The notes: generated by a model from the letters alone, not told the origin. A DNA stretch of 64,000 bases from Dehalococcoidia bacterium (GCA_965218115.1 OZ244584.1:1646576-1710575), one strand, 5' to 3'; numbered from the stretch's first letter, positions 1,412 to 59,867 are shown. Translations and numbers: made by a program.

Positions 1412-3700
1412 TTAGACCTCCGCGGGCAGCGTTGCCTCGAGGATCGCGCGCGGCGACATCGGCAGCGCGCTCATCCGCAGGCCGATCGCGTCGGCGATCG
1501 CGGCCTGGATGGCCGGGGCCGGCGGGATGATCGGGACCTCGCCGACGCCGCGCACGCCGTAAGGGTGCCCGGGGTTCGGCACCTCGACGATGATCGGCTC
1601 GATCATCGGCAGGTCGAGCGCGGTCGGCATGCGGTAGTCGAGCAGGCTGGCGTTCTTCAGGTCGCCCGTCTCGTCGTAGTAGTACTCCTCGTTCAGCGCC
1701 ATGCCGATGCCCTGCGTCGCGCCGCCCTGCATCTGTCCTTCGACGTATGCGGGGTGAATCGCGGTGCCGGCGTCCTGGACGGCGGTGTAGCGAAGAATCT
1801 CGACCTTGCCCGTGTCGGGGTCGACCTCGACATCGACGATGTGGGTCGCGAAGGCGGGACCCGAAGAGGTCTTGTTCACGTCGGCGCGGCCGACGATGTG
1901 GCCGCCGCTGGCGGCGAGCTGGCCGGCCAGCTCCTTGAAGCTGAACGTGCGCTCATTGCCGTCGTCATCCGCGGGGCCGCGAATCATCGCGTCGTCGCCG
2001 TAGCTGACATCGTCGGCGTCGACCTCCCAAATCTGCGCGGCCCGCTGCTCCATCTGACGGCGGATGTCCATCGCGCACTCGTAGGCGGCCCAGCCGCCGG
2101 CGAAGGTCGTGCGGCTGCCGCCGGTGACCATCGTGTAGCCGACGCTGTTGGTGTCGACGACGTGCGGGTGCACTTCCTCGGCGGCGATGCCGAGCGTCTC
2201 GGCGAGCTGCATGGCGATCGAGGCGCGCGTGCCGCCGATATCGGTGGAGCCGAGCACCAGCGGAACCTTGCCGTCGCCGTTGACCTGCGCGTAGGCGCTC
2301 GATTCAAAGCCGATGTTGAACCAGAAGCCCTGCGCCACGCCGCGGCCCTGGTTGGGCCCGGACAGCTCGGAGTTCCAGTGCGAGCTGCTCTGCGCCGCCT
2401 CCATGCAGTCGACGTTGCCGATGATCCCGTAGGTGAAGCCGTCGGCGCGCGATGCGCCCTCAACAGAGGCGTTCTTGAGCCGCAGCTCGAGCGGGTCGAG
2501 CTGAAGTTGCTCGGCCAGCTCGTTGATCACGGCCTCCGTCGCGAACTCCGACTGGGGCGCGCCCGGCGCGCGGTAGGCGGCGGTCTTCGGCTTGTTGACG
2601 ACCACGTCGTAGCCGTCGATGAGCTGATTGGGGATGTCGTAGGGGGCGAGGGCGCACATGGCTCCGGCGCCGACCGGCGAGCCGGGGTAGGCACCGGCCT
2701 CGAAGGCGAGGTAGACCTCGCCGGCGGTCAGCCTGCCGTCGCGCATTGCGCCGATCTTGACCCGCATGTAGGTGCCGGAGGTCGGGCCGGTGGCCAGCAG
2801 GACCTCTTCGCGGTTCATGGTCAGCTGCACGGGGCGGCCGGTGTCACGCGAGAGAATCGCGGCGAGCGGCTCGAGATAGACGGGAATCTTCCCGCCGAAG
2901 CCGCCGCCGATCTCCATCGGCGTGACCTTGACCTGTGAGGGCGAGAGCTGCACCAGCGGCGCGACCGAGTCGCGCACCACGAACGAGCCCTGCGTGCTGG
3001 TCCAGACATCGAGCGTGCCGTCGGCGCGCCAGTAGGCGGTGCCGTTGTGCGGCTCGATGTAGCCCTGGTGCGCCATCGAGGTCTCGTACTCGCGCTCGAT
3101 TACCACATCGGCCTCGGCGAAACCCGCGTCCATGTCGCCCTTGGCGAAGCGCAGGTGCGAGGCGGTGTTGCTGTCACTGTCGCTTAGCGAACCGTCCATC
3201 TCGCCGGTCTTCATGCCGTCGTGCAGCTTGGGCGCCGTGTCGAGCATCGCGTCGCGCACGTCGAGGACCGGCGGGAGCACTTCGTATTCGACCGTGATCA
3301 GCTCGATCGCGTCCTCGGCGATGTGGTGATCGGTCGCGGCGACGGCGGCCACTGCGTGACCCTTGTAGAGCACCTTGTCGGAGGCGATCACGTTGTCGAG
3401 CAGCCAACTGAGCTGCGCGGAGCCTTCGCCGGTGTCGATCACCTCATCGGAGGCGCGCGGGAAGTCGGCGTTGGTGATCACGGCCTTGACGCCGGCCAGC
3501 GCGCTGGCCTTGCTGGTGTCGATGCTGAGGACCCTGGCGTGCGCGTGGGGGCTGCGCAGGACGCGGCCGTAGAGCATGCCGGGCAGCTGCAGATCGGCCC
3601 CGTACTGCGCGGCGCCGGTGACCTTGTCAACGCCGTCGTGACGGATCGGTCGGGTGCCGATGACTTTGTACTGTGTGTGCTGACGGTCGGCGGTAACCAT
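1412..3700 (-). CDS. Molybdopterin-binding large subunit of the xanthine dehydrogenase/CO dehydrogenase family (CoxL-like); substrate unclear
   Basis: 762 aa. The N-terminus (YKVIGTRPIRHDGVDKVTGAAQYGADL) and overall features are typical of XDH/CoxL large subunits. The loop reads …AAYRAPGAPQ…, which is neither the form I VAYRCSFR nor the form II AYRGAGR signature. Confidence 0.85.
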   Translation of the reverse strand: MVTADRQHTQYKVIGTRPIRHDGVDKVTGAAQYGADLQLPGMLYGRVLRSPHAHARVLSIDTSKASALAGVKAVITNADFPRASDEVIDTGEGSAQLSWLLDNVIASDKVLYKGHAVAAVAATDHHIAEDAIELITVEYEVLPPVLDVRDAMLDTAPKLHDGMKTGEMDGSLSDSDSNTASHLRFAKGDMDAGFAEADVVIEREYETSMAHQGYIEPHNGTAYWRADGTLDVWTSTQGSFVVRDSVAPLVQLSPSQVKVTPMEIGGGFGGKIPVYLEPLAAILSRDTGRPVQLTMNREEVLLATGPTSGTYMRVKIGAMRDGRLTAGEVYLAFEAGAYPGSPVGAGAMCALAPYDIPNQLIDGYDVVVNKPKTAAYRAPGAPQSEFATEAVINELAEQLQLDPLELRLKNASVEGASRADGFTYGIIGNVDCMEAAQSSSHWNSELSGPNQGRGVAQGFWFNIGFESSAYAQVNGDGKVPLVLGSTDIGGTRASIAMQLAETLGIAAEEVHPHVVDTNSVGYTMVTGGSRTTFAGGWAAYECAMDIRRQMEQRAAQIWEVDADDVSYGDDAMIRGPADDDGNERTFSFKELAGQLAASGGHIVGRADVNKTSSGPAFATHIVDVEVDPDTGKVEILRYTAVQDAGTAIHPAYVEGQMQGGATQGIGMALNEEYYYDETGDLKNASLLDYRMPTALDLPMIEPIIVEVPNPGHPYGVRGVGEVPIIPPAPAIQAAIADAIGLRMSALPMSPRAILEATLPAEV

Positions 3701-3754
3701 TGCGGGTGTCCCTTCTGTGGTCGGGCGTGGTCGACGTTGTTCAGGTCGGCTGAG

Positions 3755-4243
3755 TTATTGCTGTCCGGCGGCGAGTTGCACGGCGCGGATGATCTTGTCG
3801 TAGCCGGTGCAGCGGCAGAGGTTGCCGGCCAGCCAATAGCGGATTTCGTGTTCCGTCGGGTCCGGGTTCTGCTCGAGCAGCGCCTCCGCGGCGACGAGGA
3901 AGCCCGGGGTGCAGATGCCGCACTGCAGCGCGGCCTCTTCGAGGAACGCGTTCTGCAGCGGTGAGAGCTGGTCGCCGTCGGCGAGGCCCTCGACGGTGAG
4001 CACGTCGGAGCCTTCGACTTCGGCAGCCATCACCAGGCAGGAGTTGACGATTCGGCCGTCGAGGTTCACGCAGCAGGCGCCGCAGTTGCCGTTGTTGCAG
4101 CCTTCCTTGGCCCCGGTCAGGCCAATCCGGTCGCGCAGCGCTTCGAGCAGGCTGTCGCGCTCGTTGGCGAGGAAGACCGTCGGCTCACCGTTGATGGTGG
4201 TGTTGACGACGATGTGGGTCGTTGCGGGCGAGGTCTGGGTCAC
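3755..4243 (-). CDS. (2Fe-2S)-binding small subunit (CoxS-like)
   Basis: 162 aa with cysteine motifs CNNGNCGACCV…C and CGICTPG…CRCTGY. Confidence 0.85.
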   Translation of the reverse strand: MTQTSPATTHIVVNTTINGEPTVFLANERDSLLEALRDRIGLTGAKEGCNNGNCGACCVNLDGRIVNSCLVMAAEVEGSDVLTVEGLADGDQLSPLQNAFLEEAALQCGICTPGFLVAAEALLEQNPDPTEHEIRYWLAGNLCRCTGYDKIIRAVQLAAGQQ

Positions 4244-4278
4244 AGTGGCGACTCCCTACGAAAAGCTGTGCTGAATGT

Positions 4279-5142
4279 CTAGGCCGCGCGCTCGGCGGCC
4301 TGGCGGATGGTTCGTTCGGTCAACACGCCGGCCAAGTGGCGGCGCTGGCGGATCGATCCGCGCATGTCGCTGATCGGGACAGCGGCGGCGCGCGATGCGG
4401 CCGCTGCGGCTTCGATCGTCTCGTCGCTGAGCGGCTGGCCGACCAGCGCGGCGGCGGCGTCATCGACGAGCAGCGGGATCGGGGCGACCGCGCCGATCGA
4501 GACGCGCGCCCAAGTCACCGTGCCGTCTTCAATCCGCACCTGCGTGGCGGCGTTGGTGACGGCGATGTCCATCTCGTTGCGCGGGATGAAGCGCAGGAAG
4601 CGGGCGCCGCTACCGGCGGCCGGCGTCGGCACGTTGAGCGAGACGACGAACTCGCCCGTCTCCAGCACGTTGCGCCCGGGGGCAGTGCAGAAGTCCTCAA
4701 CGGCGACGCTGCGGCGGCCGTTGGGGCCGGCGATCTCAACGGTCGCCTCCAGCACGATCAGCGTGGGGATGCCGTCGGCGGCGGGCGACGAGTTGCAGAG
4801 GTTTCCGCCGAGGCTGGCGCGGCCCTGGATCGCCGTGCCGCCGATCAGCGAGGTCGAGTCGACGATCGACGGGTAGAGATCGCGGACGGTCTCGCTCGCG
4901 TAGATGTCGTAGCAGGGGGTGGCCGCGCCGATGGTCAGGCCGGAGTCGGCGTCGTATGAGAGCGCCATGACTTCGGGGATGTGCTTGATGTCGACGAACA
5001 GATCGATGTCGCGCGTGCGTTCACGCGCCTGGACGATCACGTCGGTTCCGCCGGCCAGCACGCGGGCTCCGACGCCGCCTTCGGCGAGCAATCGGGAAGC
5101 CTCTTCGACACTGGCGGCGCGTGCGTACTTGACGGCTTGCAC
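4279..5142 (-). CDS. FAD-binding medium subunit (CoxM-like)
   Basis: 287 aa. It has the FAD-binding molybdopterin-dehydrogenase layout (…LAGGTDVIVQ…) and lies in an operon with the small and large subunits. Confidence 0.8.
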   Translation of the reverse strand: MQAVKYARAASVEEASRLLAEGGVGARVLAGGTDVIVQARERTRDIDLFVDIKHIPEVMALSYDADSGLTIGAATPCYDIYASETVRDLYPSIVDSTSLIGGTAIQGRASLGGNLCNSSPAADGIPTLIVLEATVEIAGPNGRRSVAVEDFCTAPGRNVLETGEFVVSLNVPTPAAGSGARFLRFIPRNEMDIAVTNAATQVRIEDGTVTWARVSIGAVAPIPLLVDDAAAALVGQPLSDETIEAAAAASRAAAVPISDMRGSIRQRRHLAGVLTERTIRQAAERAA

Positions 5143-12791: not shown

Positions 12792-13364
12792 TCAACGAGG
12801 AGGGGAAATCCGCTGAGCACTCTGCCATGAGGTCAGTCGCCGGACGCCCACGTTCCAGACAGCGAATGCTGCAAGGAACACACCCTTAGGAATCCCGCCG
12901 GACACAGTCTTCGGCTCCATTGCGTACCTCCAATCGACGAATGCAGTGTCCGCCGTGGCGAAGACCACGTCGATGTCGTGCTCGCTCCACCACGACGCCC
13001 ACTGTGCCTGTATGGCAGCAAACTCCGCTCGGACCTCGTCTTGTACGTCTTGGTCGAGCCGTTCGAACAGCGTATGTAGGCCATGCGTACCACGCTTGCC
13101 TTTGGGATCGGCTCCCGGATCTGTCTGTGCGATGAGTGTCTTGATCGCGATCTCCGCTCCGTGTGTCGTCAAGAGGATCGCCGACGTCTGGATGCCGAGT
13201 TCGCTCGGGTGTTCCTCCTTCGCATCGACGCGTTGCCTCATGTGTGGCTCCGCTTTTTCGATCACCATTTTCATTACTTCGAGCTCACCCAACAAGGATT
13301 TGAGCGCCAGCGGCACGTTCCAGTGAGGGTTTATGCTCGGTCCGCCCAGATACCAATGAGCCAC
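12792..13364 (-). CDS. Hypothetical protein in a lower-GC patch, with a possible HEPN-like Rx5H motif
   Basis: 190 aa. The region is visibly more AT-rich than the flanking genes. It contains KRGTHGLHTLFERL, and no confident family assignment was possible. Confidence 0.4.
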   Translation of the reverse strand: MAHWYLGGPSINPHWNVPLALKSLLGELEVMKMVIEKAEPHMRQRVDAKEEHPSELGIQTSAILLTTHGAEIAIKTLIAQTDPGADPKGKRGTHGLHTLFERLDQDVQDEVRAEFAAIQAQWASWWSEHDIDVVFATADTAFVDWRYAMEPKTVSGGIPKGVFLAAFAVWNVGVRRLTSWQSAQRISPPR

Positions 13365-18255: not shown

Positions 18256-19470
18256 ATGTCCACCCCCATGCTTCGTCGCTTGATTCTCAAGAGCTTTCGA
18301 AGTGTGCATGCGGCCGCGATCGATCTTGACAACCCGACGCTCCTAGTTGGGCAAAATGGCGCGGGCAAGAGCAACGTCGTCGACGCGCTTGCATTTCTGG
18401 CCGAGCTGATGTCGTCTCCGCTGTCCGCCGCATTCGACAGGCGGGGCGGAATTGCGGCAGTCCGGAATCGCCGCCTCGGACAAAGCCACCCACCGAACAT
18501 GGGATTCCGAGTGGACGTGTCGCAGCCGGACGTCAACACAAAGGAGGCTATGTACGCCTTCGACGTACGGGCACGAAAGAACTACGGCTTTGAAATAGTG
18601 AGAGAACAATGCGCCGTGGTCGACCTAGACGGGTTCACCACATGGTGGTTCGACCGGCGCCGTGATGGAGAGTTCAGCAGCAACGCAAGTTCGTTGAGCC
18701 CCGCATTGGAACCGGAAGCGCTAGCGCTTCCACTTATCGGCGGCGACTCGAGATTTAGACCCATCGTTCAGTTCCTCAGCGACATGCGAGTATACAGAAT
18801 AGAGCCGGTCGTGCTCAGGGAGATGCAGGAACCTGATAGCGGTTTGCGCCTCAACCCGGACGGTAGCAACACAGCGAGCGTGCTCAGAGAGATCGAACGG
18901 AACTCTCCTCACGGGCGTCAGCAGATACTAGCTTTGTTAGAACATATTGTCCCGAACACTGTCGATGTCAAGCCGAAAGCACACGGCAACAAGCTGGCAC
19001 TTGAGTTCGCTCAGCAATGGCCGGACGCACGGAGCATCAAATTCGAGGCCTTCAATATGTCCGACGGAACGCTTCGCGCACTCGGGCTACTGGCTGCGGT
19101 GTTCCAGCAGGCACGACCTTCCGTCTTGGTCATCGAGGAACCCGAAGCCACCATTCATCCCGGTGCGATCGAGGCCGTGCTGGATTTGTTAGAGCATGCG
19201 ACCAGAGATATGCAAGTTATCGCAACCACACATAGTCCAGACCTGCTCGATGCCAAGTGGATCGAAGATCGATTCCTCAAGATCGTCCGCTCGGAAAGGG
19301 GCGCCACAATGGTCTCCCCGGTTTCTCCAGAAGTCAGAAGCGCATTGCAACAGCACCTCATGGGAGCGGGGGAGCTTTTACGAGCGAATGCGCTGACCCC
19401 CATCAGCTCCAGCGATTTGTTCATCCGTGACCCCCGGCAGTTACGTCTTTTCGAGTCACTTTCGTCGTGA
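18256..19470 (+). CDS. ABC/AAA_21-type ATPase of the OLD/AriA-like family
   Basis: 404 aa with Walker A LLVGQNGAGKSN, the ABC signature NMSDGTLR, Walker B VLVIEEPEATIHP and the H-loop ATTHSP. An RBS (AAGGGAG) lies upstream. GC is visibly lower than in the flanks. Confidence 0.75.
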   Translation: MSTPMLRRLILKSFRSVHAAAIDLDNPTLLVGQNGAGKSNVVDALAFLAELMSSPLSAAFDRRGGIAAVRNRRLGQSHPPNMGFRVDVSQPDVNTKEAMYAFDVRARKNYGFEIVREQCAVVDLDGFTTWWFDRRRDGEFSSNASSLSPALEPEALALPLIGGDSRFRPIVQFLSDMRVYRIEPVVLREMQEPDSGLRLNPDGSNTASVLREIERNSPHGRQQILALLEHIVPNTVDVKPKAHGNKLALEFAQQWPDARSIKFEAFNMSDGTLRALGLLAAVFQQARPSVLVIEEPEATIHPGAIEAVLDLLEHATRDMQVIATTHSPDLLDAKWIEDRFLKIVRSERGATMVSPVSPEVRSALQQHLMGAGELLRANALTPISSSDLFIRDPRQLRLFESLSS

Positions 19471-20105
19471 AGATAGTCCCAGTAGTGGAGGGGGAGGGTG
19501 AAGTTAAGGCAGTGCCTATCTTATTGCGCCGGATGATTGCACTGGTAGAGGCGTTCGAATCGATACAGGTCGGCCGGCCTATCCGCAAACCGCGCAGCCA
19601 ACTAACTAAGCGCGAGGGAATGGTTGAGGTCTTGAAGCTTGCCCGCATTCAGGGGGCGGACTCGGTTTTGTGCCTCTTTGATAGCGATGGTGTATGCCCA
19701 GTCAATCTGGCAGCGTGTTTACTGAACTGGGCGAGGGAGGAAGCATCGGACTTGGACTGTCATGTGGTAGTTGCCCATCAAGAATACGAGGCGTGGTTTT
19801 TGGCATCTATTCCTTCGCTTCGAGCGCACCCTGCGATGAGAGACGATGCAGAGTGCCATCCGAATCCAGAAGCGCGTCAAGGCGCGAAAGAACAGCTACA
19901 TAGCCGCATGCAGACTGGCAGCAGTTATTCACCAACGGCTCACCAAGCGGCATTCACCGCCAGCTTTGACATGGCATCCGCATACGCACATTGTCGATCA
20001 TTTCGAAAATTGACTAGCGCATTCGGCCAGATTCTCAGTAGGGTCGATTCGAACGTTGCTCACTGGCCACCAAGAGAATGGTCGGACACGATCATCCCCG
20101 AGTAA
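19467..20105 (+). CDS. TOPRIM-like small protein (DUF4276-like), partner of the upstream ATPase
   Basis: 212 aa with a GTG start overlapping the ATPase stop (GTGA). The N-terminus KIVPVVEGEGE resembles the TOPRIM catalytic Glu strand, CLFDSDG resembles the DxD motif, and HQEYEAWFL resembles the conserved DUF4276 HEFEALLF region. Confidence 0.6.
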   Translation: MKIVPVVEGEGEVKAVPILLRRMIALVEAFESIQVGRPIRKPRSQLTKREGMVEVLKLARIQGADSVLCLFDSDGVCPVNLAACLLNWAREEASDLDCHVVVAHQEYEAWFLASIPSLRAHPAMRDDAECHPNPEARQGAKEQLHSRMQTGSSYSPTAHQAAFTASFDMASAYAHCRSFRKLTSAFGQILSRVDSNVAHWPPREWSDTIIPE

Positions 20106-21934: not shown

Positions 21935-22593
21935 GCGACGAGTCGCCCTTTCGGCCCGAACACTTCCGCAAGTACGACGAGTCCGACGACGCGCGGTTCT
22001 ATGTCGAGCCGCGCTTCGTCGCGCACATCGACGAGACCGCGATCGCGGCGCTCTCTGAGTACTACGCGCAGGTCCTGAAGCCCGAGGACCGGGTGCTCGA
22101 CCTGATGTCGTCGTGGGTCTCGCATCTCCCGGCGGGCTACCAGCCTGCGCGCGCCGTCGGCCTGGGGATGAACGCCGATGAGCTGTCGCGCAACCCGGCG
22201 CTCGACGACTGGGTGGTGCACGACCTCAATCGCGAGCCGACGCTGCCGTTCGAGGACGCCAGTTTCGACGCGGTGCTGATCGCGGTCTCGGTCCAATACC
22301 TCCAGCGTCCTTTGGAGGTCTTCGCGGAGATCGCTCGTGTGCTCGAGCCGGGCGGCCGCTGTGTCGTCTCGTTCTCGAACCGCTGCTTCCCGACCAAGGC
22401 GGTGGCGCTCTGGCAGGGCCTCAACGATTCAGGCCACGTCCAGGCGGTGGGCGCCTACTTCCAGCATGCGGGCGGCTTCGAGGCCGCCGAATGGCTCGAG
22501 CGCAAGACGCCCGGCACGGACCCGCTCTACATCGTGCAGGCGCGGACGCCGGTGGGGAACGAAGCTACTGAGCGGACGCGGTCGCCCGCTTAA
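21931..22593 (+). CDS. Class I SAM-dependent methyltransferase
   Basis: 220 aa with VLDLMSSWVSHLP…FDAVLIAVSVQYL…LEPGGRCV, which are methyltransferase motifs I and post-I. Confidence 0.7.
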   Translation: MSDESPFRPEHFRKYDESDDARFYVEPRFVAHIDETAIAALSEYYAQVLKPEDRVLDLMSSWVSHLPAGYQPARAVGLGMNADELSRNPALDDWVVHDLNREPTLPFEDASFDAVLIAVSVQYLQRPLEVFAEIARVLEPGGRCVVSFSNRCFPTKAVALWQGLNDSGHVQAVGAYFQHAGGFEAAEWLERKTPGTDPLYIVQARTPVGNEATERTRSPA

Positions 22594-23125
22594 GATTGAG
22601 CGTGAGCAACAGCTCCAGCATCTCGTCGTCGCCGATATCGGGGGGCCAGCCGTAGGCGGCGAAGACGGCGGCGTCGAGTGTTGCGTGGAGGTTGGCGAGC
22701 CAGGTGGGGCGTTCGTTGTAGAGATTGGTCAGCGTGCGCTTGCGGAGCTGTTTTTCGGCGTGTTCGTCGACGGGCAGCAGACGCGGCGGCAGCGAGGGAA
22801 TCACGTCGGGCTCCTCGCGCACCCACTCGGGCGGGTTGAGCCAGAGGCGACGCTTCGAGTCCAGCTCGCGCGCCGCCTCGCCGATGGCGTCGCGGTGGGC
22901 GCGTTGTTCGGGGGTCAGCGCATCATCGGGTGTGTTGAGCGGCCAGGGGAATGGGAAGGTCTCGAACGTGGTGGTCGGCGTGTAGCGAGGGCGGTCCTCA
23001 AGGCTGTCTCCCATTCGCAAGGACCAGAATTCGTACGCAGGTGAGTCTGGCATCGAGGCAAAGTAGACGACGCATATGTCGCGCGGACGCCGCGTCACAT
23101 GCAGCCCGTTGACCCATGAGCCCAC
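22565..23125 (-). CDS. C-terminal fragment of an MmeI/PglX-family (type IIG/IIL restriction-modification, BREX-type) enzyme
   Basis: 186 aa with TFETFPFPWP…LTNLYNERPTWLANLHATLDAAVFAAYGW…DDEMLELLLTLNLKRA, matching the conserved C-terminus of MmeI-family proteins. GC is high, as in host genes. Confidence 0.6.
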   Translation of the reverse strand: MGSWVNGLHVTRRPRDICVVYFASMPDSPAYEFWSLRMGDSLEDRPRYTPTTTFETFPFPWPLNTPDDALTPEQRAHRDAIGEAARELDSKRRLWLNPPEWVREEPDVIPSLPPRLLPVDEHAEKQLRKRTLTNLYNERPTWLANLHATLDAAVFAAYGWPPDIGDDEMLELLLTLNLKRATASAQ

Positions 23126-23270
23126 GCCTCAGGCTCCCTCCGTAGGTCACCCGCATCCCACCCGCCGCCCGAACAGGCACTACTTCGACATGCAACGCAG
23201 CGCTAGGCAGTCAGAAAGGGTCATCAGTCCCGTGGAAACACTCACATTCCACCAGGCGCATACATTTATC

Positions 23271-24194
23271 TCACGGATTTCTGTTCGTAAGGTCCTTTAA
23301 GCGACGCGTCAACATCTCTTTGAGCCCTGTCATGTTGTCGTACTCAGGGCAATTGTATTCACTTAAGTCGAAGTGGAGCTTAGTCCCTCGTTTCCGGTAT
23401 AGTATCACCCTTTTGTCAAGCGCATGAGCGTATCCGACTTCGTAGTACACGTTCGGCTTTTCATTGGTCAAGTCAGCCATGAGGAATTCGGACTTGTTGA
23501 TCCTTTCTCTGACTTTATCTGTTATTCTGCCCTCGTGTTCGATTTCATCAGCACGCACAGCGGCTATTGAGAAATCACCGAAGCAATCGCGGATCGTATT
23601 GTAAGTGTCTTCGAGACCAGGATCGTCCCGATCAATGGCCATCATGACGAATGCCGAGTTTGGTTCGTACGATGTGGTGGATTGGGGGTTGGCTCGCCAC
23701 TCTTCAGTGACGAAGGTTGGGGAGACATCGAGGAGTTCAACCAAGCCCAGTATATTTTCGATGTCGCGCTGGTAATTGCGAAGTGCGATCTTGGGATGAA
23801 CGGGCGTCGTATCTGATTGACTGGCGGGTTGAAATCCGAGCACTTCGCCCTCATCGTGCAATACTTCCGGTTCCGAAAACTCGTAAAGCCGCAACCGAAG
23901 TGATGCGCGCGTTGACTTTGTCCACGTTCCAAGGTCTCGGTGGTCAACATCGGTCACCAGGGCCGAATACTTGAGTGAGTTCGCGATTGGCTTGATCGCC
24001 TTGAGGATCTGGCTCTGGAGGTCGGCGGACTGACTTTTCAAATCATCGTCCAGCTGGGACCAGAAATGGTCAGGCTCGATTTCCCAATACGGACGCTCAT
24101 CGTCATCCAGGTGCATTGCACGTTTGAAGAAGGTTCCGCCGTCGTCTCGGATCTGGGCGAATAGGCTGCGGTAAGGGGTGAAGTCGAGAGTCAT
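23271..24194 (-). CDS. Protein with a C-terminal nucleoside 2-deoxyribosyltransferase-like / TIR-like (SLOG-superfamily) domain and an unassigned N-terminal domain
   Basis: 307 aa. The C-terminus reads FVMMAIDRDDPG…LMADLTNEKPNVYYEVGYAHALDKRVILY, which follows the NDT pattern (…D.gt.fEvGyA.algKpvi.l). GC is clearly lower than in the flanking fragments. Confidence 0.55.
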   Translation of the reverse strand: MTLDFTPYRSLFAQIRDDGGTFFKRAMHLDDDERPYWEIEPDHFWSQLDDDLKSQSADLQSQILKAIKPIANSLKYSALVTDVDHRDLGTWTKSTRASLRLRLYEFSEPEVLHDEGEVLGFQPASQSDTTPVHPKIALRNYQRDIENILGLVELLDVSPTFVTEEWRANPQSTTSYEPNSAFVMMAIDRDDPGLEDTYNTIRDCFGDFSIAAVRADEIEHEGRITDKVRERINKSEFLMADLTNEKPNVYYEVGYAHALDKRVILYRKRGTKLHFDLSEYNCPEYDNMTGLKEMLTRRLKDLTNRNP

Positions 24195-35260: not shown

Positions 35261-35881
35261 GTGAAGGCCGACCCGATCAGGCGACGTAGAACGGTGCGGT
35301 TCGATACGAGCATTCTCGTTGCGGCCATTCCTGTGGCACTAGCCGGATCTGCATACGCAGCATCACGGCCGGATACGACCACGGCGCTCTCTTACTACAG
35401 GGCGGGTGCCGATCTCAAACTTGCAGGTGAGGCAAACGCGATGTCTGTGATCCCGAAATCTGGCCCTTCACCGGTGGTCGTCGTAGGACCGGCACTCTAC
35501 GTAAGAACAACAGAGTCTATCGCGATGATCGTGTTTGAGTGCACGCCGGACGCTCTTGGGGACTTTGTCGCACTCGGCCCGCGCTCTTGTCTTGCGGGAT
35601 CAGCCGTCTCGAGCTTGGCATTGCCATCTGACAAAGCAGGCCACACTAACCACGCGGCTACTTTCACCACCGATGCAAGAGCGCTTGGAGATTTCGCCAG
35701 ATTTAGTGATGTTGAGCGGCGAAATCTCCTGCGCACCGCCCACGAACACCACTCAGAAGCTAGCACACCGATTGTGATCAGTCCAACACTCGCATCGCCG
35801 CCGCGTCCGATTGGTGTCATGTATATTTCAGGGAACTTGAAGAAGTCAGCAATCCTCAACTACTTTCTCAAGTGTCGCTGA
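35261..35881 (+). CDS. Hypothetical, probably exported, protein in a lower-GC patch
   Basis: 206 aa with an N-terminal RRRR…hydrophobic…AYAAS signal-like segment. No family was recognised. Confidence 0.35.
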   Translation: MKADPIRRRRTVRFDTSILVAAIPVALAGSAYAASRPDTTTALSYYRAGADLKLAGEANAMSVIPKSGPSPVVVVGPALYVRTTESIAMIVFECTPDALGDFVALGPRSCLAGSAVSSLALPSDKAGHTNHAATFTTDARALGDFARFSDVERRNLLRTAHEHHSEASTPIVISPTLASPPRPIGVMYISGNLKKSAILNYFLKCR

Positions 35882-51840: not shown

Positions 51841-52533
51841 ATGTCACCCGCCGCTGCTGCCCCGCTGGACGTCTTCTACCGTGGCGCCCTGCGAGCCAGG
51901 CTCGTTGCCCCCCTGGCCGGCACCACGCCGAATCAACTCGCGGCGTGGCACCGCCGAAGCATTCTGACCTCCTCCTTCATCAAGGGCCGACGCGGCGTGC
52001 CACGCCTCTACTCATGGATCGACTACCAGAAGGCTCGCGCGCTCGTAATGCTGATCGGGCAAGGGATCGAGCGTCGTCGGTTGGGTCCGCAGATCGCCGC
52101 GCTCGACGCTGAAGTTGACGAATGGTGGAAGCTCCCTCTGCTCGCTTACTCGAACTATGTGATTGTCCCGAGAGACGGTGCTCCGGGATACACCATCATC
52201 GAAAAGCAGGGCGCCATGGACGAATTTATCCGCGATGCGCCACTCCTCTCCGAAGACGTAGCGGCCGACGACGCCGAGCTTGCGATCGACGTCATACGCG
52301 TCCTACGAGCGGAGGGACCCCTGGGGCGACTTGCCGAGTATCGAGAGTTCATCGACATGGATCCCCGCATCCAGGACGGCCACCCGGTCGTATCCGGCCG
52401 CCGCATCGAAACGGGCATGCTGGCGAAACTCAGCGAGTGGGGGCGCGGCTCGGACGAACTCGCCGACCGCTTCGAGCTCGCCACCGAGCAGGTCGAAGCG
52501 GCGCTCGCGTTCGAGCAGGCGCTCGCGGCTTAG
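51841..52533 (+). CDS. DUF433-domain protein (antitoxin-like) with an N-terminal extension
   Basis: The C-terminus reads …IDMDPRIQDGHPVVSGRRIETGML…, the DUF433 signature. Confidence 0.55.
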   Translation: MSPAAAAPLDVFYRGALRARLVAPLAGTTPNQLAAWHRRSILTSSFIKGRRGVPRLYSWIDYQKARALVMLIGQGIERRRLGPQIAALDAEVDEWWKLPLLAYSNYVIVPRDGAPGYTIIEKQGAMDEFIRDAPLLSEDVAADDAELAIDVIRVLRAEGPLGRLAEYREFIDMDPRIQDGHPVVSGRRIETGMLAKLSEWGRGSDELADRFELATEQVEAALAFEQALAA

Positions 52534-52543
52534 ATGAGCGTCG

Positions 52544-52963
52544 ATGCGCCTACTCCTCGACGAAAATATGTGGCGCGACACCGCCATCATCCTTACCCTC
52601 CTCGGCCATCCCTCTCAGCGTTCGATCGACGTCACCGGCCGAGGAGCAAGCGATGTGGCAATCGCGGAGCGAATCGCCGAATACGACGCATTCGTGACCG
52701 CCGACCTTCATCGCCAACCACACGAGCGGCGCGCGATCAACGAAGCGATTGTCGCCGGCGCAAACGTCGTGCGGATCAGATACCGGCGGGGCGAGCCAGA
52801 CGACGCAATGGCTGAAGTTCGCTCGCTTATCTGGAAATGGCCGACCATTCAAGCTGCTGTTCAAGACGACGAAATCGGACTCATCACGGTCTCTGCACAG
52901 GGGAACCGCATCCGCACAAACAGCCGATCTTTCGTCGCTTCGCGGCTGGCCGACGACACGTAG
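52544..52963 (+). CDS. DUF5615-family PIN-like protein (putative toxin partner of DUF433)
   Basis: MRLLLDENM… N-terminus and …AFVTADL… are typical of DUF5615. It sits 10 nt downstream of the DUF433 gene. Confidence 0.55.
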   Translation: MRLLLDENMWRDTAIILTLLGHPSQRSIDVTGRGASDVAIAERIAEYDAFVTADLHRQPHERRAINEAIVAGANVVRIRYRRGEPDDAMAEVRSLIWKWPTIQAAVQDDEIGLITVSAQGNRIRTNSRSFVASRLADDT

Positions 52964-56859: not shown

Positions 56860-56941
56860 CACAGCGCGGCGCTGGAGCGGCGCTGAGGCGGCCCTGGAGC
56901 GTCGCGCGGGTGGGGTGGGCGCGCTACGATTGACGACGCCT

Positions 56942-57017
56942 TGCCCGGTAGCTCAATTGGTAGAGCGGGCGGCTGTTAACCGCTAGGTTGCGGGTTCAAG
57001 TCCTGCCCGGGCAGCCA
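56942..57017 (+). tRNA. tRNA-Asn (anticodon GTT)
   Basis: Cloverleaf by eye: TGCCCGG/CCGGGCA acceptor, GCTC-AATTGGTA-GAGC D-arm, GGCGG-ctGTTaa-CCGCT anticodon arm, GGTTCAAGTCC T-loop. The CCA end is encoded. Confidence 0.8.
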
Positions 57018-57021
57018 CGTT

Positions 57022-57453
57022 TTACGACACTTCCCGCTCCATCAGACGCTTCAGGTCTGTGATCTGCCCGCCGTCGGTGCGGCGGATCGCGAAGCGGATC
57101 AGCGGCGCCAGCAGGCGGTAGTGCAGGCCGCTGAAGTTGCATTCGGCGACAAGGGTGACGCGGGTGGCGGTCTCCCCGACGGGCTCGAGGCTGTAGCTGT
57201 AATCGGCGGTGACGCCGCCCTGCTGCGAGCGCAGCACGAGCGAGCGGCCCGGTTCACAGCTGGCGATCAGAGAATCGCGCTCGGCGCCGCGGGTGTGGAA
57301 GCGGATGCGTGTCCCCTCGGCGGAGTCGCCGTCGGCGGACATGGAGTCGATCCCATTCATCCATCGTGCCGCGGCTGGCCAGTCGGTGAGGGTGGTCCAG
57401 ACGTCGGCGGGGGATCGGTTGATGGTTTCGGTGGCTGCGAATGATTGCGGCAT
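57022..57453 (-). CDS. SRPBCC-family (START/polyketide-cyclase-like) protein
   Basis: Start taken at MPQSFAATETINRSPADVWTTLTDWPAAARWMNGI…, which is a typical SRPBCC N-terminus. Confidence 0.6.
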   Translation of the reverse strand: MPQSFAATETINRSPADVWTTLTDWPAAARWMNGIDSMSADGDSAEGTRIRFHTRGAERDSLIASCEPGRSLVLRSQQGGVTADYSYSLEPVGETATRVTLVAECNFSGLHYRLLAPLIRFAIRRTDGGQITDLKRLMEREVS

Positions 57454-57867
57454 TGGGAGCGCTCCGTCTGCGACGCCGATTCTAAGTGGGGGGAGCAGGT
57501 GGTCGATTGACGCTTCGGAGCGCTGGCGCGCGTGTCGTCTGTGGCCTCGCGGCGCAGGCGGTTTGTCGATCGCTGGAGGAAGCCGGATGCGCCGGCACGC
57601 GGTCGAGATCTGCTGGAGCGACGTTGGCGATGCGTCCGTTGCTGGGGCGCATGAGCCTTCCGGGAAGATCGCGTCGCCCCGCGGTGCTAAGCACGCACGG
57701 CGTAGGCGACCGTTCTGTCGCCGCCACCCCGCCTGCTGGAGTACGCCTACGCTGAATGAGGTGCTTTGCGGCTCGGAGCTCCGCCGCCGGTTGGTGGCGT
57801 CGCGCAACGCACGAACCAACCACCCGATTCCCCTGGAGAGCCCTTGTTAGCTTCACGCGGCTCCCCG

Positions 57868-59640
57868 ATGTCGGAAGGCCCTGCACACGACATGCAAGCA
57901 GATGACGAACGAGGCGATGACGCACCGCCGACGCCTTCGGTAACTGTGGAATCGATGACATTTTCCGATGGAACGACTATTTCGCTCAACCGAGGTGATG
58001 TCGTCGTCTTCGTCGGACCGAACAATGCGGGCAAAAGCCAGGCGCTGCGTGAACTTTCACAGGTCATTTCGGATGCCAACACAGGTCCCGTCTTGAGACG
58101 TGCATCAATCAACCGATTCGGCACCGCCGGCGAAGTCTCACGGTACATCGCAGATCATTCGATCGCGGACCAACAGCCTAGGAAGCTTGTTTATCGTGGC
58201 TACCAATACGCAGTCACCGCGGCACAGATTGCTTCCATGTGGCGGGATCGCCTCGGGCAGCTCGCGCCGTTCTTTTGCCACACTATCTCCACTGCGACTC
58301 GCATTGACGCGAGCAATCCTGCGCAAGCAATCGCATTCCCGAACGAATCCCCGTCGCATCCCATTCACTCCCTGTATCGAGACGATGCTCTCGAACGTCA
58401 GGTTTCCGATTTGTTCGACCGCGCATTCGGCTTGCGCCTATTCGTCTATCGACTAGGCGGATCGCGCATCCCGCTGATCGTCGGACCTGAAGTCCAACTG
58501 AAGCCCGGCGAAGATAGGCTCTCTACGGAATACAACGTGCGCCTCCTCGATAGTACTGTGCCGCTCGAGACGCAAGGAGACGGGATGCGGAGCTTTGCGA
58601 GCGTAATCCTACATATCCTCGCCCCACTGACGGCAAGCATTGTGCTCCTCGACGAGCCTGAGGCGTTCCTGCATCCCCCGCAAGCCCGCCTGCTAGGTGA
58701 GATCATCGCGACAGAGCGGCGTGGCACATCGCAGCTTTTTGTCGCGACCCACAGTCCCGACGTCGTATACGGATTGCTAAATGTAGTCGAGAACGAGCAC
58801 CTGCGGATCATCCGACTTGAACGTGTGGGAGACGAGAACCGCATCAAGGAGCTTGATCGAGCGGGGGCATCTCAGATTGCGAGCGATCCTCTAATGAAGT
58901 ACTCGTCCGTTCTCTCTGGCGTATTTCACCAACGAGTCATCATATGCGAGTCTGACGCCGACTGCATGTTCTATGGCACGCTTCTCCACCTACCGAGCGT
59001 GCGTGGCCCCCGTCACCCAGACGTACTTTTCATCCATCCGAGCGGGAAGCACCGCATGGCGGTTCAGGTGAAGGCACTGCGATCGCTCGGCGTCCCTGTC
59101 GATGTTATCGCGGATATGGACGTCTTAAACGACGTGTCAGTGATCAAGGGTCTATTCGAAGCGTTGGGAGGCGACTGGTCCCTCGTAGAGGCGCAGGTGA
59201 AACACGTAATAGCTGCGATCGAGGAGCGGCACCCTCCCATGACGGCGGGTGACGTGGCTCGGTCGATCCAGGATGCCTTGCATGGTATGGATCATGGTGG
59301 CACTTTTCCGAAGGCTGCCCGCAGGACAATCTTAGATACGCTGCGGGATACGTCTCCGTGGAGTTTTGTGAAGAAATCTGGCGAACACGGTGGAATCCCA
59401 AGCGGTACTCCCAACGAGGAGTACCGCACTGTGCGCGGAGCTTTCGAAAGTGTCGGATTGTGGCTGGTACCGGTGGGCGAGCTTGAGGGCTTCTGCCGCA
59501 ACGTGGGTGGTCACGGGTCCGGATGGGTGCAAAGCGTGGTCGAACAGCACGACTTGGAGCAGTCGCCCGACCTAGAAGACGCACGCGTCTTCGTCCGCAA
59601 AGTGTGGACGGGGGGTGGCCGCTCGCCGACGACGGTCTGA
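57868..59640 (+). CDS. Class-1 OLD-family ATP-dependent endonuclease: ABC ATPase fused to a C-terminal TOPRIM domain
   Basis: Walker A VVVFVGPNNAGKSQ, Walker B IVLLDEPEAFLHP and H-loop VATHSP. The TOPRIM domain has a catalytic Glu (VIICESDAD) and a DxD motif (VDVIADMDVLND). GC is lower than the surroundings. The start is uncertain, with candidates at 57766, 57868 and 57955. Confidence 0.75.
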   Translation: MSEGPAHDMQADDERGDDAPPTPSVTVESMTFSDGTTISLNRGDVVVFVGPNNAGKSQALRELSQVISDANTGPVLRRASINRFGTAGEVSRYIADHSIADQQPRKLVYRGYQYAVTAAQIASMWRDRLGQLAPFFCHTISTATRIDASNPAQAIAFPNESPSHPIHSLYRDDALERQVSDLFDRAFGLRLFVYRLGGSRIPLIVGPEVQLKPGEDRLSTEYNVRLLDSTVPLETQGDGMRSFASVILHILAPLTASIVLLDEPEAFLHPPQARLLGEIIATERRGTSQLFVATHSPDVVYGLLNVVENEHLRIIRLERVGDENRIKELDRAGASQIASDPLMKYSSVLSGVFHQRVIICESDADCMFYGTLLHLPSVRGPRHPDVLFIHPSGKHRMAVQVKALRSLGVPVDVIADMDVLNDVSVIKGLFEALGGDWSLVEAQVKHVIAAIEERHPPMTAGDVARSIQDALHGMDHGGTFPKAARRTILDTLRDTSPWSFVKKSGEHGGIPSGTPNEEYRTVRGAFESVGLWLVPVGELEGFCRNVGGHGSGWVQSVVEQHDLEQSPDLEDARVFVRKVWTGGGRSPTTV

Positions 59641-59705
59641 TCCGCTTTATCCGTTGCAGCGGACCACTATGTGCCGATTCCTCATCGTCCGCTAAAGCTG
59701 ATCGT

Positions 59706-59779
59706 TGGCTGCCGCGCCAGGATTTGAACCTGAACTAAGGGATCCAAAGTCCCTGGTGCTACCGTTACACTACGCGGCA
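59706..59779 (-). tRNA. tRNA-Gln (anticodon TTG)
   Basis: The reverse complement folds as TGCCGCG acceptor … AGGGA-ctTTGga-TCCCT anticodon arm … GGTTCAAATCC T-loop … CGCGGCA-G-CCA. Confidence 0.75.
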
Positions 59780-59780
59780 G

Positions 59781-59867
59781 TGGTACCGAGGGCCGGACTC
59801 GAACCGGCACGGGCATTACACCCAATGGTGTTTGAGACCATCGCGTCTACCATTCCGCCACCTCGGC
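59781..59867 (-). tRNA. tRNA-Leu (anticodon CAA), with a long variable arm
   Basis: The reverse complement folds as GCCGAGG acceptor, GCGG-AATGGTAG-ACGC D-arm, ATGGT-ctCAAac-ACCAT anticodon arm, a long variable arm, GGTTCGAGTCC T-loop and CCTCGGT-A-CCA. Confidence 0.75.

Follow-up and report, generated by a model that had tools for sequence, protein, structure and literature searches.

A predicted single-gene OLD-type nuclease in a small tRNA-bounded variable slot of a Dehalococcoidia bacterium

Herein, we describe a short tRNA-bracketed locus in a stretch of 64,000 nucleotides (nt) from a Dehalococcoidia bacterium, and particularly the one long gene that it holds, predicted to encode an OLD-family nuclease in which an ATPase and a TOPRIM region are combined into a single protein of 590 amino acids (aa). 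The whole stretch is called the window, and all positions are counted from its first letter. The locus had been pointed out in an earlier inspection made without database searches (the sequence-only reading), whose claims are taken up where our results bear on them.

Genes and features of the locus

The locus opens with a tRNA-Asn gene and closes with a tRNA-Gln and a tRNA-Leu gene on the opposite strand (Table 1). All three were found by both ARAGORN and Rfam, in agreement with the bracket proposed by the sequence-only reading, and Rfam detected no RNA families other than tRNA at the locus. Between the tRNA genes, only an SRPBCC gene and a long open reading frame (ORF) on the plus strand are credible, as had likewise been stated. 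The tRNA-Asn forms the left anchor of the locus and is 100% identical in all seven related loci discussed below (blastn). The Pfam domain of the SRPBCC gene starts only at residue 125 of the longest ORF; the likely gene is thus the 143-aa version, which is also the length called in relatives.

Table 1. Coordinates of the features at the tRNA-bracketed locus and of the HEC-01 pair elsewhere in the window
Feature	Position	Strand	Remarks
tRNA-Asn(GTT)	56942-57017	+	ARAGORN; Rfam 68.6 bits
SRPBCC (Polyketide_cyc2) gene, 143 aa, conserved flank	57022-57453	-	Pfam 2.9e-12
SRPBCC upstream region, common to relatives with other cargo	57454-57619	.	blastn, alignment
Cargo-specific leader 5' of the OLD gene	57620-57867	+	Common only to OLD-carrying L001 and L002, ~77% identity
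Single-gene OLD-family ATPase-TOPRIM nuclease (predicted), 590 aa	57868-59640 (stop included)	+	ORF, profile and structure searches
ABC/SMC-Rad50-type ATPase region, aa 23-345	57934-58902	+	
Walker A GPNNAGKS, aa 50-57	58015-58038	+	K56 invariant (97/97)
Walker B and D-loop SIVLLDEPEAFLHP, aa 257-270	58636-58677	+	D262, E263, H269 invariant
TOPRIM core strands 1-3, aa 354-420	58927-59127	+	E361, D365 (ICESDAD), D416, D418 (ADMD) invariant
Helical insertion between TOPRIM strands 3 and 4, aa 421-528, ~108 aa	59128-59451	+	Predicted in AF2 model
TOPRIM strand 4 and motif LWLVPVGELEGFCR, aa 529-550	59452-59517	+	
Cargo-specific spacer, 65 nt, OLD stop to tRNA-Gln 3' end	59641-59705	.	
tRNA-Gln(TTG)	59706-59779	-	ARAGORN, Rfam
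tRNA-Leu(CAA), conserved flank	59781-59867	-	ARAGORN, Rfam
HEC-01A	18256-19470	+	PADLOC 1e-108; Pfam AAA_21/AAA_15/DUF2813
HEC-01B	19467-20105	+	PADLOC 7e-61; Pfam DUF4276, weak RloB match

The longest ORF of the OLD gene spans 57766-59640 from a TTG codon (624 aa). Its first ATG, at 57868, is the likely start and yields 590 aa, in line with the length of about 590 aa given before. Residues are numbered herein according to the 590-aa protein, whereas the positions of PADLOC matches follow the 624-aa version. Both motifs quoted in the sequence-only reading were recovered, VIICESDAD spanning aa 356-364 and VDVIADMDVLND aa 411-422, and the gene is apparently intact. When looked up by exact sequence, neither the OLD nor the SRPBCC protein was on record.

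In composition, the OLD gene is foreign. Its GC content is 0.58 overall and 0.638 at third codon positions (GC3), whereas GC3 amounts to 0.85-0.92 in five neighbors (SRPBCC at 0.85, RNase D, an ABC ATPase, a CNNM gene, and a HAD gene). The AT-richness remarked upon before is equally visible in 500-nt windows, with a GC content of 0.57-0.59 against 0.68-0.75 in the flanks. The leader in front of the gene presumably contains its promoter and 5' untranslated region. A scan of the region for promoters and terminators gave nothing better than chance; the sole sigma-70-like site (57506-57479, minus strand) lies within the SRPBCC upstream stretch.

Architecture and class of the protein

The protein is very probably an OLD homologue. 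Its N-terminal part is an ABC-type ATPase of the SMC/Rad50 kind, for which a full set of motifs had been claimed, and the Walker A lysine, the Walker B acidic pair, the D-loop histidine, and the H-loop histidine are all in place. An AlphaFold2 (AF2) model of the monomer shows an insertion of about 170 aa that separates the P-loop helix from the signature helix, at the position where Thermus scotoductus OLD (Ts OLD) has its dimerization domain. Ts OLD (6p74) is the class 1 prototype and requires K34, H140, E276, and H310 for ATP hydrolysis (PMC7049728). In a HMMER alignment of the two ATPases, D262/E263 of our protein correspond to E276/E277 of Ts OLD, H269 to H283, and H295 to H310, with K34 likewise falling on an invariant residue and the Walker B Asp being canonical here (D262) and a Glu in Ts OLD. 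For the TOPRIM region, the alignment pairs E361 with E377, D365 with D381, and D416/D418 with D431/D433. K56, R145, D262, E263, H269, H295, E361, D365, D416, and D418 are invariant in all 97 homologues of our family alignment.

A TOPRIM domain at the C-terminus, the other half of the proposed architecture, finds agreement among the PADLOC Old model, the family profile, the hhalign comparison with P2 Old, and Foldseek, the Pfam match alone staying below its threshold. Only two PADLOC models reach through the TOPRIM region, namely Old (8e-19 over aa 289-479) and GajA (2e-13 over aa 255-458). When the family profile, built from the 97-sequence alignment, was searched against all PDB sequences, Ts OLD came first (3.3e-8), followed by GajA (five chains, about 1e-5) and the retron-Eco8 OLD (4e-4). 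Ts OLD is also the best solved-structure match by sequence for the single protein (3.5e-5). With the full AF2 model as the query, the top proteins in Foldseek were Eco8 OLD (1.1e-10), Ts OLD (9.6e-10, rank 4), and GajA (5e-9). When the C-terminal 251 aa were modeled separately (predicted local distance difference test score, pLDDT, of 84.9), three OLD C-terminal entries of two proteins, from Xanthomonas (Xcc) and Burkholderia (Bp), took the lead among 350,542 chains (1.4e-3 to 1.6e-2, probability 0.97-1.0), with Ts OLD 11th; given the low TM-scores (0.35-0.42), this signal is specific but weak.

The AF2 model further predicts about six helices within aa 417-528, between TOPRIM strands 3 and 4, where W498, G505, and P511 are invariant. 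The predicted fourth strand (aa 531-534) is followed by VPVGELEGFC[K/R], the GELEG part of which hhalign pairs with GDIEA of P2 Old. Residue 538 is Glu in 92 of the 97 homologues and residue 540 in 96, whereas residue 544 is K or R in all of them. The catalytic Arg/Lys of OLD proteins is R487 in Ts OLD and K562 in Bp OLD. Judging by the motif, E538 and E540 are likely candidates for metal-B ligands and K/R544 for the catalytic base. In Ts OLD, metal A is held by E377, D431, and D433 and metal B by D381, S478, and E480, with R487 as the catalytic residue (PMC7049728). Our alignments to Ts OLD stop short of the region of E538, E540, and residue 544, and a chimeric query lacking the insertion found no OLD structure in the PDB.

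OLD proteins are divided into classes by gene context: class 1 consists of single genes, class 2 has a UvrD-like helicase as a neighbor (Gabija), class 3 comprises retron effectors, and class 4 corresponds to PARIS (PMC10568477, PMC13261556). For class 1, Patel & Seed apply a length cutoff of 500-600 aa that goes back to Schiltz et al. (PMC12392090). Our protein is class 1 by context and by every feature tested, because it is encoded by a single gene (no helicase, reverse transcriptase, or split partner) and its length falls within 500-600 aa. No UvrD/GajB helicase lies beside the gene in the islet or beside its homologues in four other genomes (L009-L012), and directly 3' of the gene, where class 2 carries GajB, tRNA-Gln follows 65 nt past the stop. 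As for class 4, Pfam gave no DUF4435 or RloB match in the OLD protein. A reading as a retron effector (class 3) was tried and rejected: there is no reverse transcriptase ORF, Rfam matched no retron (msr/msd) RNA, and the NCBIfam model retron_eff_Eco8 scored 27.5 bits, far under its cutoff of 250.

The contexts of homologues on long contigs from those four unrelated genomes share no common neighbor and no conserved synteny. A ResIII/restriction-like gene and an SLFN/AlbA_2 gene are found in L009, IS21 and Mutator transposases in L010, HigB/HTH and HepT/MNT toxin-antitoxin pairs together with another AAA_15 ATPase in L011, and a transposase fragment in L012. In all four, the GC content of the homologue is lower than that of its flanks.

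The class 1, P2 Old-like architecture that had been proposed is borne out by the single gene, the length of 590 aa, and the collinearity with P2 Old (P13520, 586 aa). Both proteins display Walker A, signature, Walker B, H-loop, the TOPRIM E-x3-D/E, DxD, and a helical stretch in the same order, then a G-[ED]-[LI]-E motif and basic residues. In hhalign, the family profile matches P2 Old with 95.9% probability (E 5.9e-9, aa 240-541 against P2 268-544), a collinearity that reaches within 50 aa of the C-terminus, and BLASTP against the P2 Old sequence from NC_001895 gave 3e-9 over aa 257-423. In addition, each is encoded by a single gene that a variable locus carries as accessory cargo. On the other hand, identity is only about 18-20%, and the N-terminal half is unalignable save for a short, non-significant Walker A match. 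DxD and the following acidic motif are separated by 122 aa here, compared with 88 aa in P2 Old and 47 aa in Ts OLD. P2 Old is, moreover, prophage-borne, whereas our gene comes from an uncultured Dehalococcoidia lineage. P2 Old senses RecBCD inhibition, needs ATP hydrolysis, and removes tRNA anticodon arms (PMC12445682).

Other characterized OLD proteins share part of these features. Ts OLD, which degrades DNA, has no insertion (PMC7049728), whereas about 110 aa of helices are inserted here, and the TM-score between the two is only 0.36-0.40. Class 2 OLD/GajA proteins likewise combine an ATPase with a TOPRIM, and the C-terminal regions of Xcc and Bp OLD also bear extra helices; unlike for GajA, no GajB helicase adjoins our gene. 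Vibrio cholerae OLD (Vc OLD, HAS2513945.1) and E. coli YbjD/OldB are, like ours, encoded by single chromosomal genes and measure 500-600 aa. Phage replication is blocked by Vc OLD, which nicks DNA and whose defense activity requires Walker A, Walker B, and the TOPRIM DxD (PMC12392090). Compared by motif position alone, K48/D313/D468-D470 of Vc OLD stand against K56/D262/D416-D418 here, a spacing that points to a different subfamily.

The variable slot in eight related loci

The locus was compared with seven relatives. Two of them, L003 (OZ253504.1) and L004 (OZ250140.1), are complete "MAG: Dehalococcoidia bacterium" chromosomes that were found by scanning one genome per species with the neighboring RNase D, which is 97% and 96% identical, respectively. 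The other five (L001, L002, L017, L018, and L019) are metagenomic contigs of the same lineage, obtained via exact-protein look-ups. A metagenome scan with SRPBCC returned only relatives of 49-63% identity without nearby tRNAs and was uninformative on the slot. A further SRPBCC relative (L020, 71% identity) was found in an unrelated setting, and the tRNA-SRPBCC arrangement is thus specific to this lineage. The SRPBCC cluster P0121 by itself comprises 60 sequences.

tRNA-Asn, SRPBCC, tRNA-Gln, and tRNA-Leu are kept in all eight loci, the tRNAs being 99-100% and the flanks 90-95% identical. What lies between SRPBCC and tRNA-Gln is not. Homology to the window stops at 57619 in L003 and L004, at 57590 in L019, and at 57491 in L018, and with these loci of other cargo it returns only at 59700-59704, 2-6 nt from the tRNA-Gln 3' end, which forms the sharp right junction of the slot in every locus. 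The sequence-only reading had included SRPBCC in the islet, and on this point it has to be corrected: the foreign, low-GC segment covers only about 57620-59705, and SRPBCC is flank rather than cargo because of its host-like GC3 of 0.85 and its presence in all loci.

Measured from the SRPBCC start to tRNA-Gln, the slot contains the OLD gene in the window, L001, and L002 (2252-2254 nt, GC 0.60). In L003 and L019, it is occupied by a pair of genes (1751-1753 nt, GC 0.61-0.62), in which a 146-aa SocA/Panacea-like protein (PDC-M19A, 3e-12) overlaps a 252-aa proteasome-beta-like protein (PF00227, 1.6e-8); the former alone matches a PADLOC candidate. L004 carries a 308-aa AbiJ_NTD4 protein (PADLOC PDC-S32, 1.9e-20; slot of 1531 nt, GC 0.62). 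The slot of L018 (2271 nt, GC 0.60) holds a DUF5131 protein (PDC-M30B 3e-48, PDC-M41B 7e-51) and a TcmP-like protein (PDC-M30A 8e-19), and that of L017 is empty (120 nt, GC 0.70). In this comparison, fixed beforehand as a refuting test, the OLD gene is thus not core at the locus: it is present in three of the eight loci, other cargo in four, and nothing in one. The slot is a small, integrase-free cargo hotspot filled with defense-like cassettes or with nothing, its right edge lying at the tRNA-Gln 3' end.

This arrangement resembles the integrase-free defense hotspots of E. coli and Pseudomonas pan-genomes, in which core flanks enclose alternative cassettes or an empty allele of atypical GC, and here too the slot lacks mobility genes. 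The P2 old/tin locus is itself a defense hotspot (PMC10568477). Unlike the E. coli and Pseudomonas hotspots, our slot is very small and accommodates a single system (1.4-2.1 kb), has the 3' end of a tRNA as a boundary, shows occasional tRNA-Asn duplicates at its other edge, and belongs to uncultured, high-GC Dehalococcoidia.

Some particulars of the relatives deserve mention. The stop of the Panacea-like gene overlaps the start of the proteasome-beta-like (Ntn hydrolase) gene in both L003 (13135-14330) and L019 (3162-4357), which is an unusual pairing. Between the AbiJ-like gene of L004 and the pseudo-tRNA-Asn described below, at about 12950-13100 (slot positions 1135-1275), two G/C-rich hairpin copies (CTCTCCCCCCGCTCTGCGGGGGGAGA and a near-inverse) may constitute a small repeat element. 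L017, finally, has a GajB-like UvrD helicase gene of about 2.1 kb between tRNA-Leu and the CNNM gene (2659-4587, minus strand), called as three frameshifted pieces and with no GajA/OLD gene beside it; its position suggests a second insertion slot across the tRNA pair.

Role, mode of acquisition, and further islets

What best explains the observations combined is a stand-alone class 1-type OLD nuclease as the current cargo of a hotspot, a reading in which we place considerable confidence. It probably acts in defense, the support being indirect: its variable slot is shared with PADLOC candidate systems. An N-terminal SMC/Rad50-like ABC ATPase is fused to a C-terminal TOPRIM nuclease, predicted to be of the two-metal type and bearing a P2 Old-like helical insertion. 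The mechanism can be sketched from the characterized class 1 proteins: upon sensing of an infection, ATP binding or hydrolysis by a dimer would license the TOPRIM to cut double-stranded nucleic acid, leading to a block of phage replication or to abortive infection.

Several points weigh against this explanation. Pfam OLD-like_TOPRIM (PF20469) reaches only 19.9 bits on this sequence (E 1.1e-3; cutoff 23.2), although many homologues have a precomputed match to it. TM-scores to solved OLD structures are low (0.3-0.4), and the putative metal-B ligands and catalytic base were placed by motif position alone. The OLD gene of the window shares 91-94% nucleotide identity with that of L001/L002, and the flanks share 92-95%. 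As gene and flanks have diverged to an equal extent, the gene has persisted since the separation of these lineages rather than arriving very recently, and it was probably present in their common ancestor. The recombination route favored below is deduced solely from the absence of integrases and att repeats. In E. coli, YbjD can give anti-phage phenotypes even when its TOPRIM domain is absent (PMC13261556), and a cell-cycle function has been reported for an archaeal OLD (cited in PMC13261556), so that a defense role is not guaranteed.

The last points also feed an alternative that assigns the protein a housekeeping or DNA-repair function, as a RecF/RecN/SbcC-like ATPase-nuclease or as an OLD acting in the cell, and that sees no immune effector in it. 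Its ATPase fold is indeed closest to SMC/Rad50/RecN heads, the cell-cycle function of the archaeal OLD and the uncertain part that YbjD plays in physiology (PMC13261556) are compatible with such a function, and the gene has persisted over the whole time in which its flanks diverged. A housekeeping gene would, however, hardly be missing from five of the eight close loci, with unrelated defense-like genes in four and an empty slot in one. Its foreign codon composition, the homologues scattered elsewhere without synteny among transposases, toxin-antitoxin, and restriction genes, and best profile matches that are defense OLDs also speak against it, and we regard it as quite improbable. An even slimmer chance is given to a PARIS-like (AriA-AriB) or AbiL-like fusion of ATPase and nuclease, or to an orphan ATPase of a multi-gene system with a distant partner, in place of a P2-type OLD. 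AriA does have the top PADLOC score (6e-21), and the AbiLi, PtuA, and HEC-01A models match as well; these matches are nevertheless limited to the C-terminal lobe of the ATPase (about aa 206-365), and the fused AriAB model covers only aa 291-334 (1.2e-9). Fused PARIS and AbiL readings were rejected on these grounds and for want of DUF4435/RloB. The Old and GajA models, which cross the TOPRIM, the collinearity with P2 Old, and the lack of a conserved neighbor leave the class 1-type OLD nuclease as the preferred reading.

As to how this nuclease gene arrived, the tRNA 3' end is a classic position for integration, and integration there leaves a 3' tRNA fragment. One might therefore think of a decayed tRNA-targeting element (prophage or islet), whose tyrosine integrase inserted at tRNA-Gln or tRNA-Asn and was later lost. 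Such an origin would suit the right junction, exactly at the tRNA-Gln 3' end for all cargo types, the foreign composition of the cargo, and the tRNA-Asn-derived sequence at the left edge of two loci. In L018, a second tRNA-Asn(gtt), 81-84% identical and called by ARAGORN (4757-4831, minus strand), stands between SRPBCC and the cargo, and the left edge of L004 (12793-12918) consists of the 5' 46 nt of tRNA-Asn (a pseudo-tRNA) plus 80 nt of its upstream region. These copies are, however, 5' parts rather than the 3' fragment that 3'-end integration leaves, and the cassettes measure only 1.4-2.1 kb. None of the eight slots contains an integrase, transposase, recombinase, or phage gene or a tRNA-Gln-derived repeat (z -2.2 to 1.7), and the best tRNA-Asn remnant in the window slot, with a score of 23 against 20.3 +/- 2.7 for shuffles, is not significant. 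The earlier statement that neither an integrase nor a tRNA-derived direct repeat was seen thus holds for the window, and a decayed integrative element appears unlikely to us.

Cassette replacement by homologous recombination is the simplest and most likely reading. The exchange would take place in the conserved flanks, which comprise the CNNM gene, SRPBCC, and the tRNA genes. Under this reading, the abrupt right edge of the slot would show how far purifying selection on the tRNA extends. A more far-reaching and rather doubtful idea is that the slot could represent a minimal site for cassette exchange, the 3' ends of convergent tRNAs anchoring recombination between diverged lineages.

A few repeats around the tRNA genes are recorded here in their own right. 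A 25-nt inverted repeat (56993-57017/59706-59730) is formed by the 3' ends of tRNA-Asn and tRNA-Gln, which are 84% complementary, and probably reflects just the similarity of two tRNA 3' ends. With the arrangement of L018, the cargo would be bracketed by convergent, similar tRNA 3' ends. Just 5' of tRNA-Asn, at 56866-56905, three overlapping copies of an 18-nt unit follow each other at 11-nt spacing (GCGGCGCTGGAGCGGCGC), and part of this stretch is duplicated together with the pseudo-tRNA-Asn in L004. In addition, a motif of about 30 nt from upstream of tRNA-Asn (GGTGGGGTGG..GATTGACG) recurs upstream of SRPBCC in relatives.

The family to which the protein belongs is large. A word-indexed protein search gave 2952 matches, the best of which, besides two 93%-identical fragments, share 49-58% identity across at least 94% of the length, and HMMER over 1.84 billion cluster representatives (50%-identity clusters) returned 1859 at E<=1e-30. 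Among the best 150 representatives, most are full-length (about 555-620 aa), the others being fragments or longer proteins. Their source names are few and generic ("hypothetical protein", "AbiEii toxin/OLD-like protein"), and no experimental work on this OLD family was found in the literature. Using tblastn, phage records yielded only an "AAA family ATPase" of a mycobacterial prophage at 28% identity and gp28 of the P2-like Burkholderia phage KS5, P2 itself not being returned; plasmids carry "AAA family ATPase" genes that are 24-34% identical.

It is tempting, if speculative, to see in this large and well-conserved family a deep clade of single-gene OLD nucleases, in which the invariant helical module of about 110 aa (W498, G505, P511) could be a dedicated domain for substrate recognition or sensing. 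If so, its substrate or trigger would be unlike that of any OLD studied, e.g., tRNA-stem cutting with another specificity than that of P2 OLD. The helical insertion is in any case the obvious candidate for specificity. Studies of class 1 OLDs are few and concern P2 Old, Ts OLD, Vc OLD, and YbjD, whose substrates (tRNA stems, DNA ends, DNA nicks) and triggers are not alike. Our gene adds an abundant, well-conserved environmental subfamily with a P2-like TOPRIM insertion, which makes it reasonable for biochemical comparison. The main added value lies in the eight-locus comparison, a natural experiment in which a slot of about 2 kb holds one of four unrelated defense-like cassettes or nothing. 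Such a slot is useful for discovery through guilt by association, the Panacea-like and proteasome-like pair being its least understood occupant. Known patterns of OLD proteins and defense islands are hereby extended to a new lineage, leaving current understanding unchanged.

Elsewhere in the window, the sequence-only reading had placed a second OLD-type module, a split ATPase/TOPRIM pair at 18256-20105. This pair turned out to be the PADLOC candidate system HEC-01, an ATPase with a DUF4276 protein, and no TOPRIM profile matched it, so that a second OLD-type module is not demonstrated; it lies within a low-GC islet (0.56-0.59). The lowest-GC kilobase of the window (0.53) belongs to an ORF of 307 aa (23271-24194, minus strand), whose C-terminus has a weak, sub-threshold likeness to nucleoside 2-deoxyribosyltransferase (3.5e-5). 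An adjoining ORF of 186 aa (22565-23125, minus strand) weakly matches the MmeI C-terminal domain, and the region 22565-24194 may be another small accessory or defense islet. On the plus strand, a DUF433 protein (51841-52533, 1e-8) and a PIN_10/DUF5615-like protein (52544-52963) form a toxin-antitoxin-like pair in a GC dip of 0.60-0.63; the segment 51841-52963 varies among relatives, being missing in L001 and 67% identical in L004. Another GC dip (0.59) coincides with an ORF of 206 aa (35261-35881, plus strand) that has no Pfam match and whose N-terminus, by eye, looks hydrophobic.

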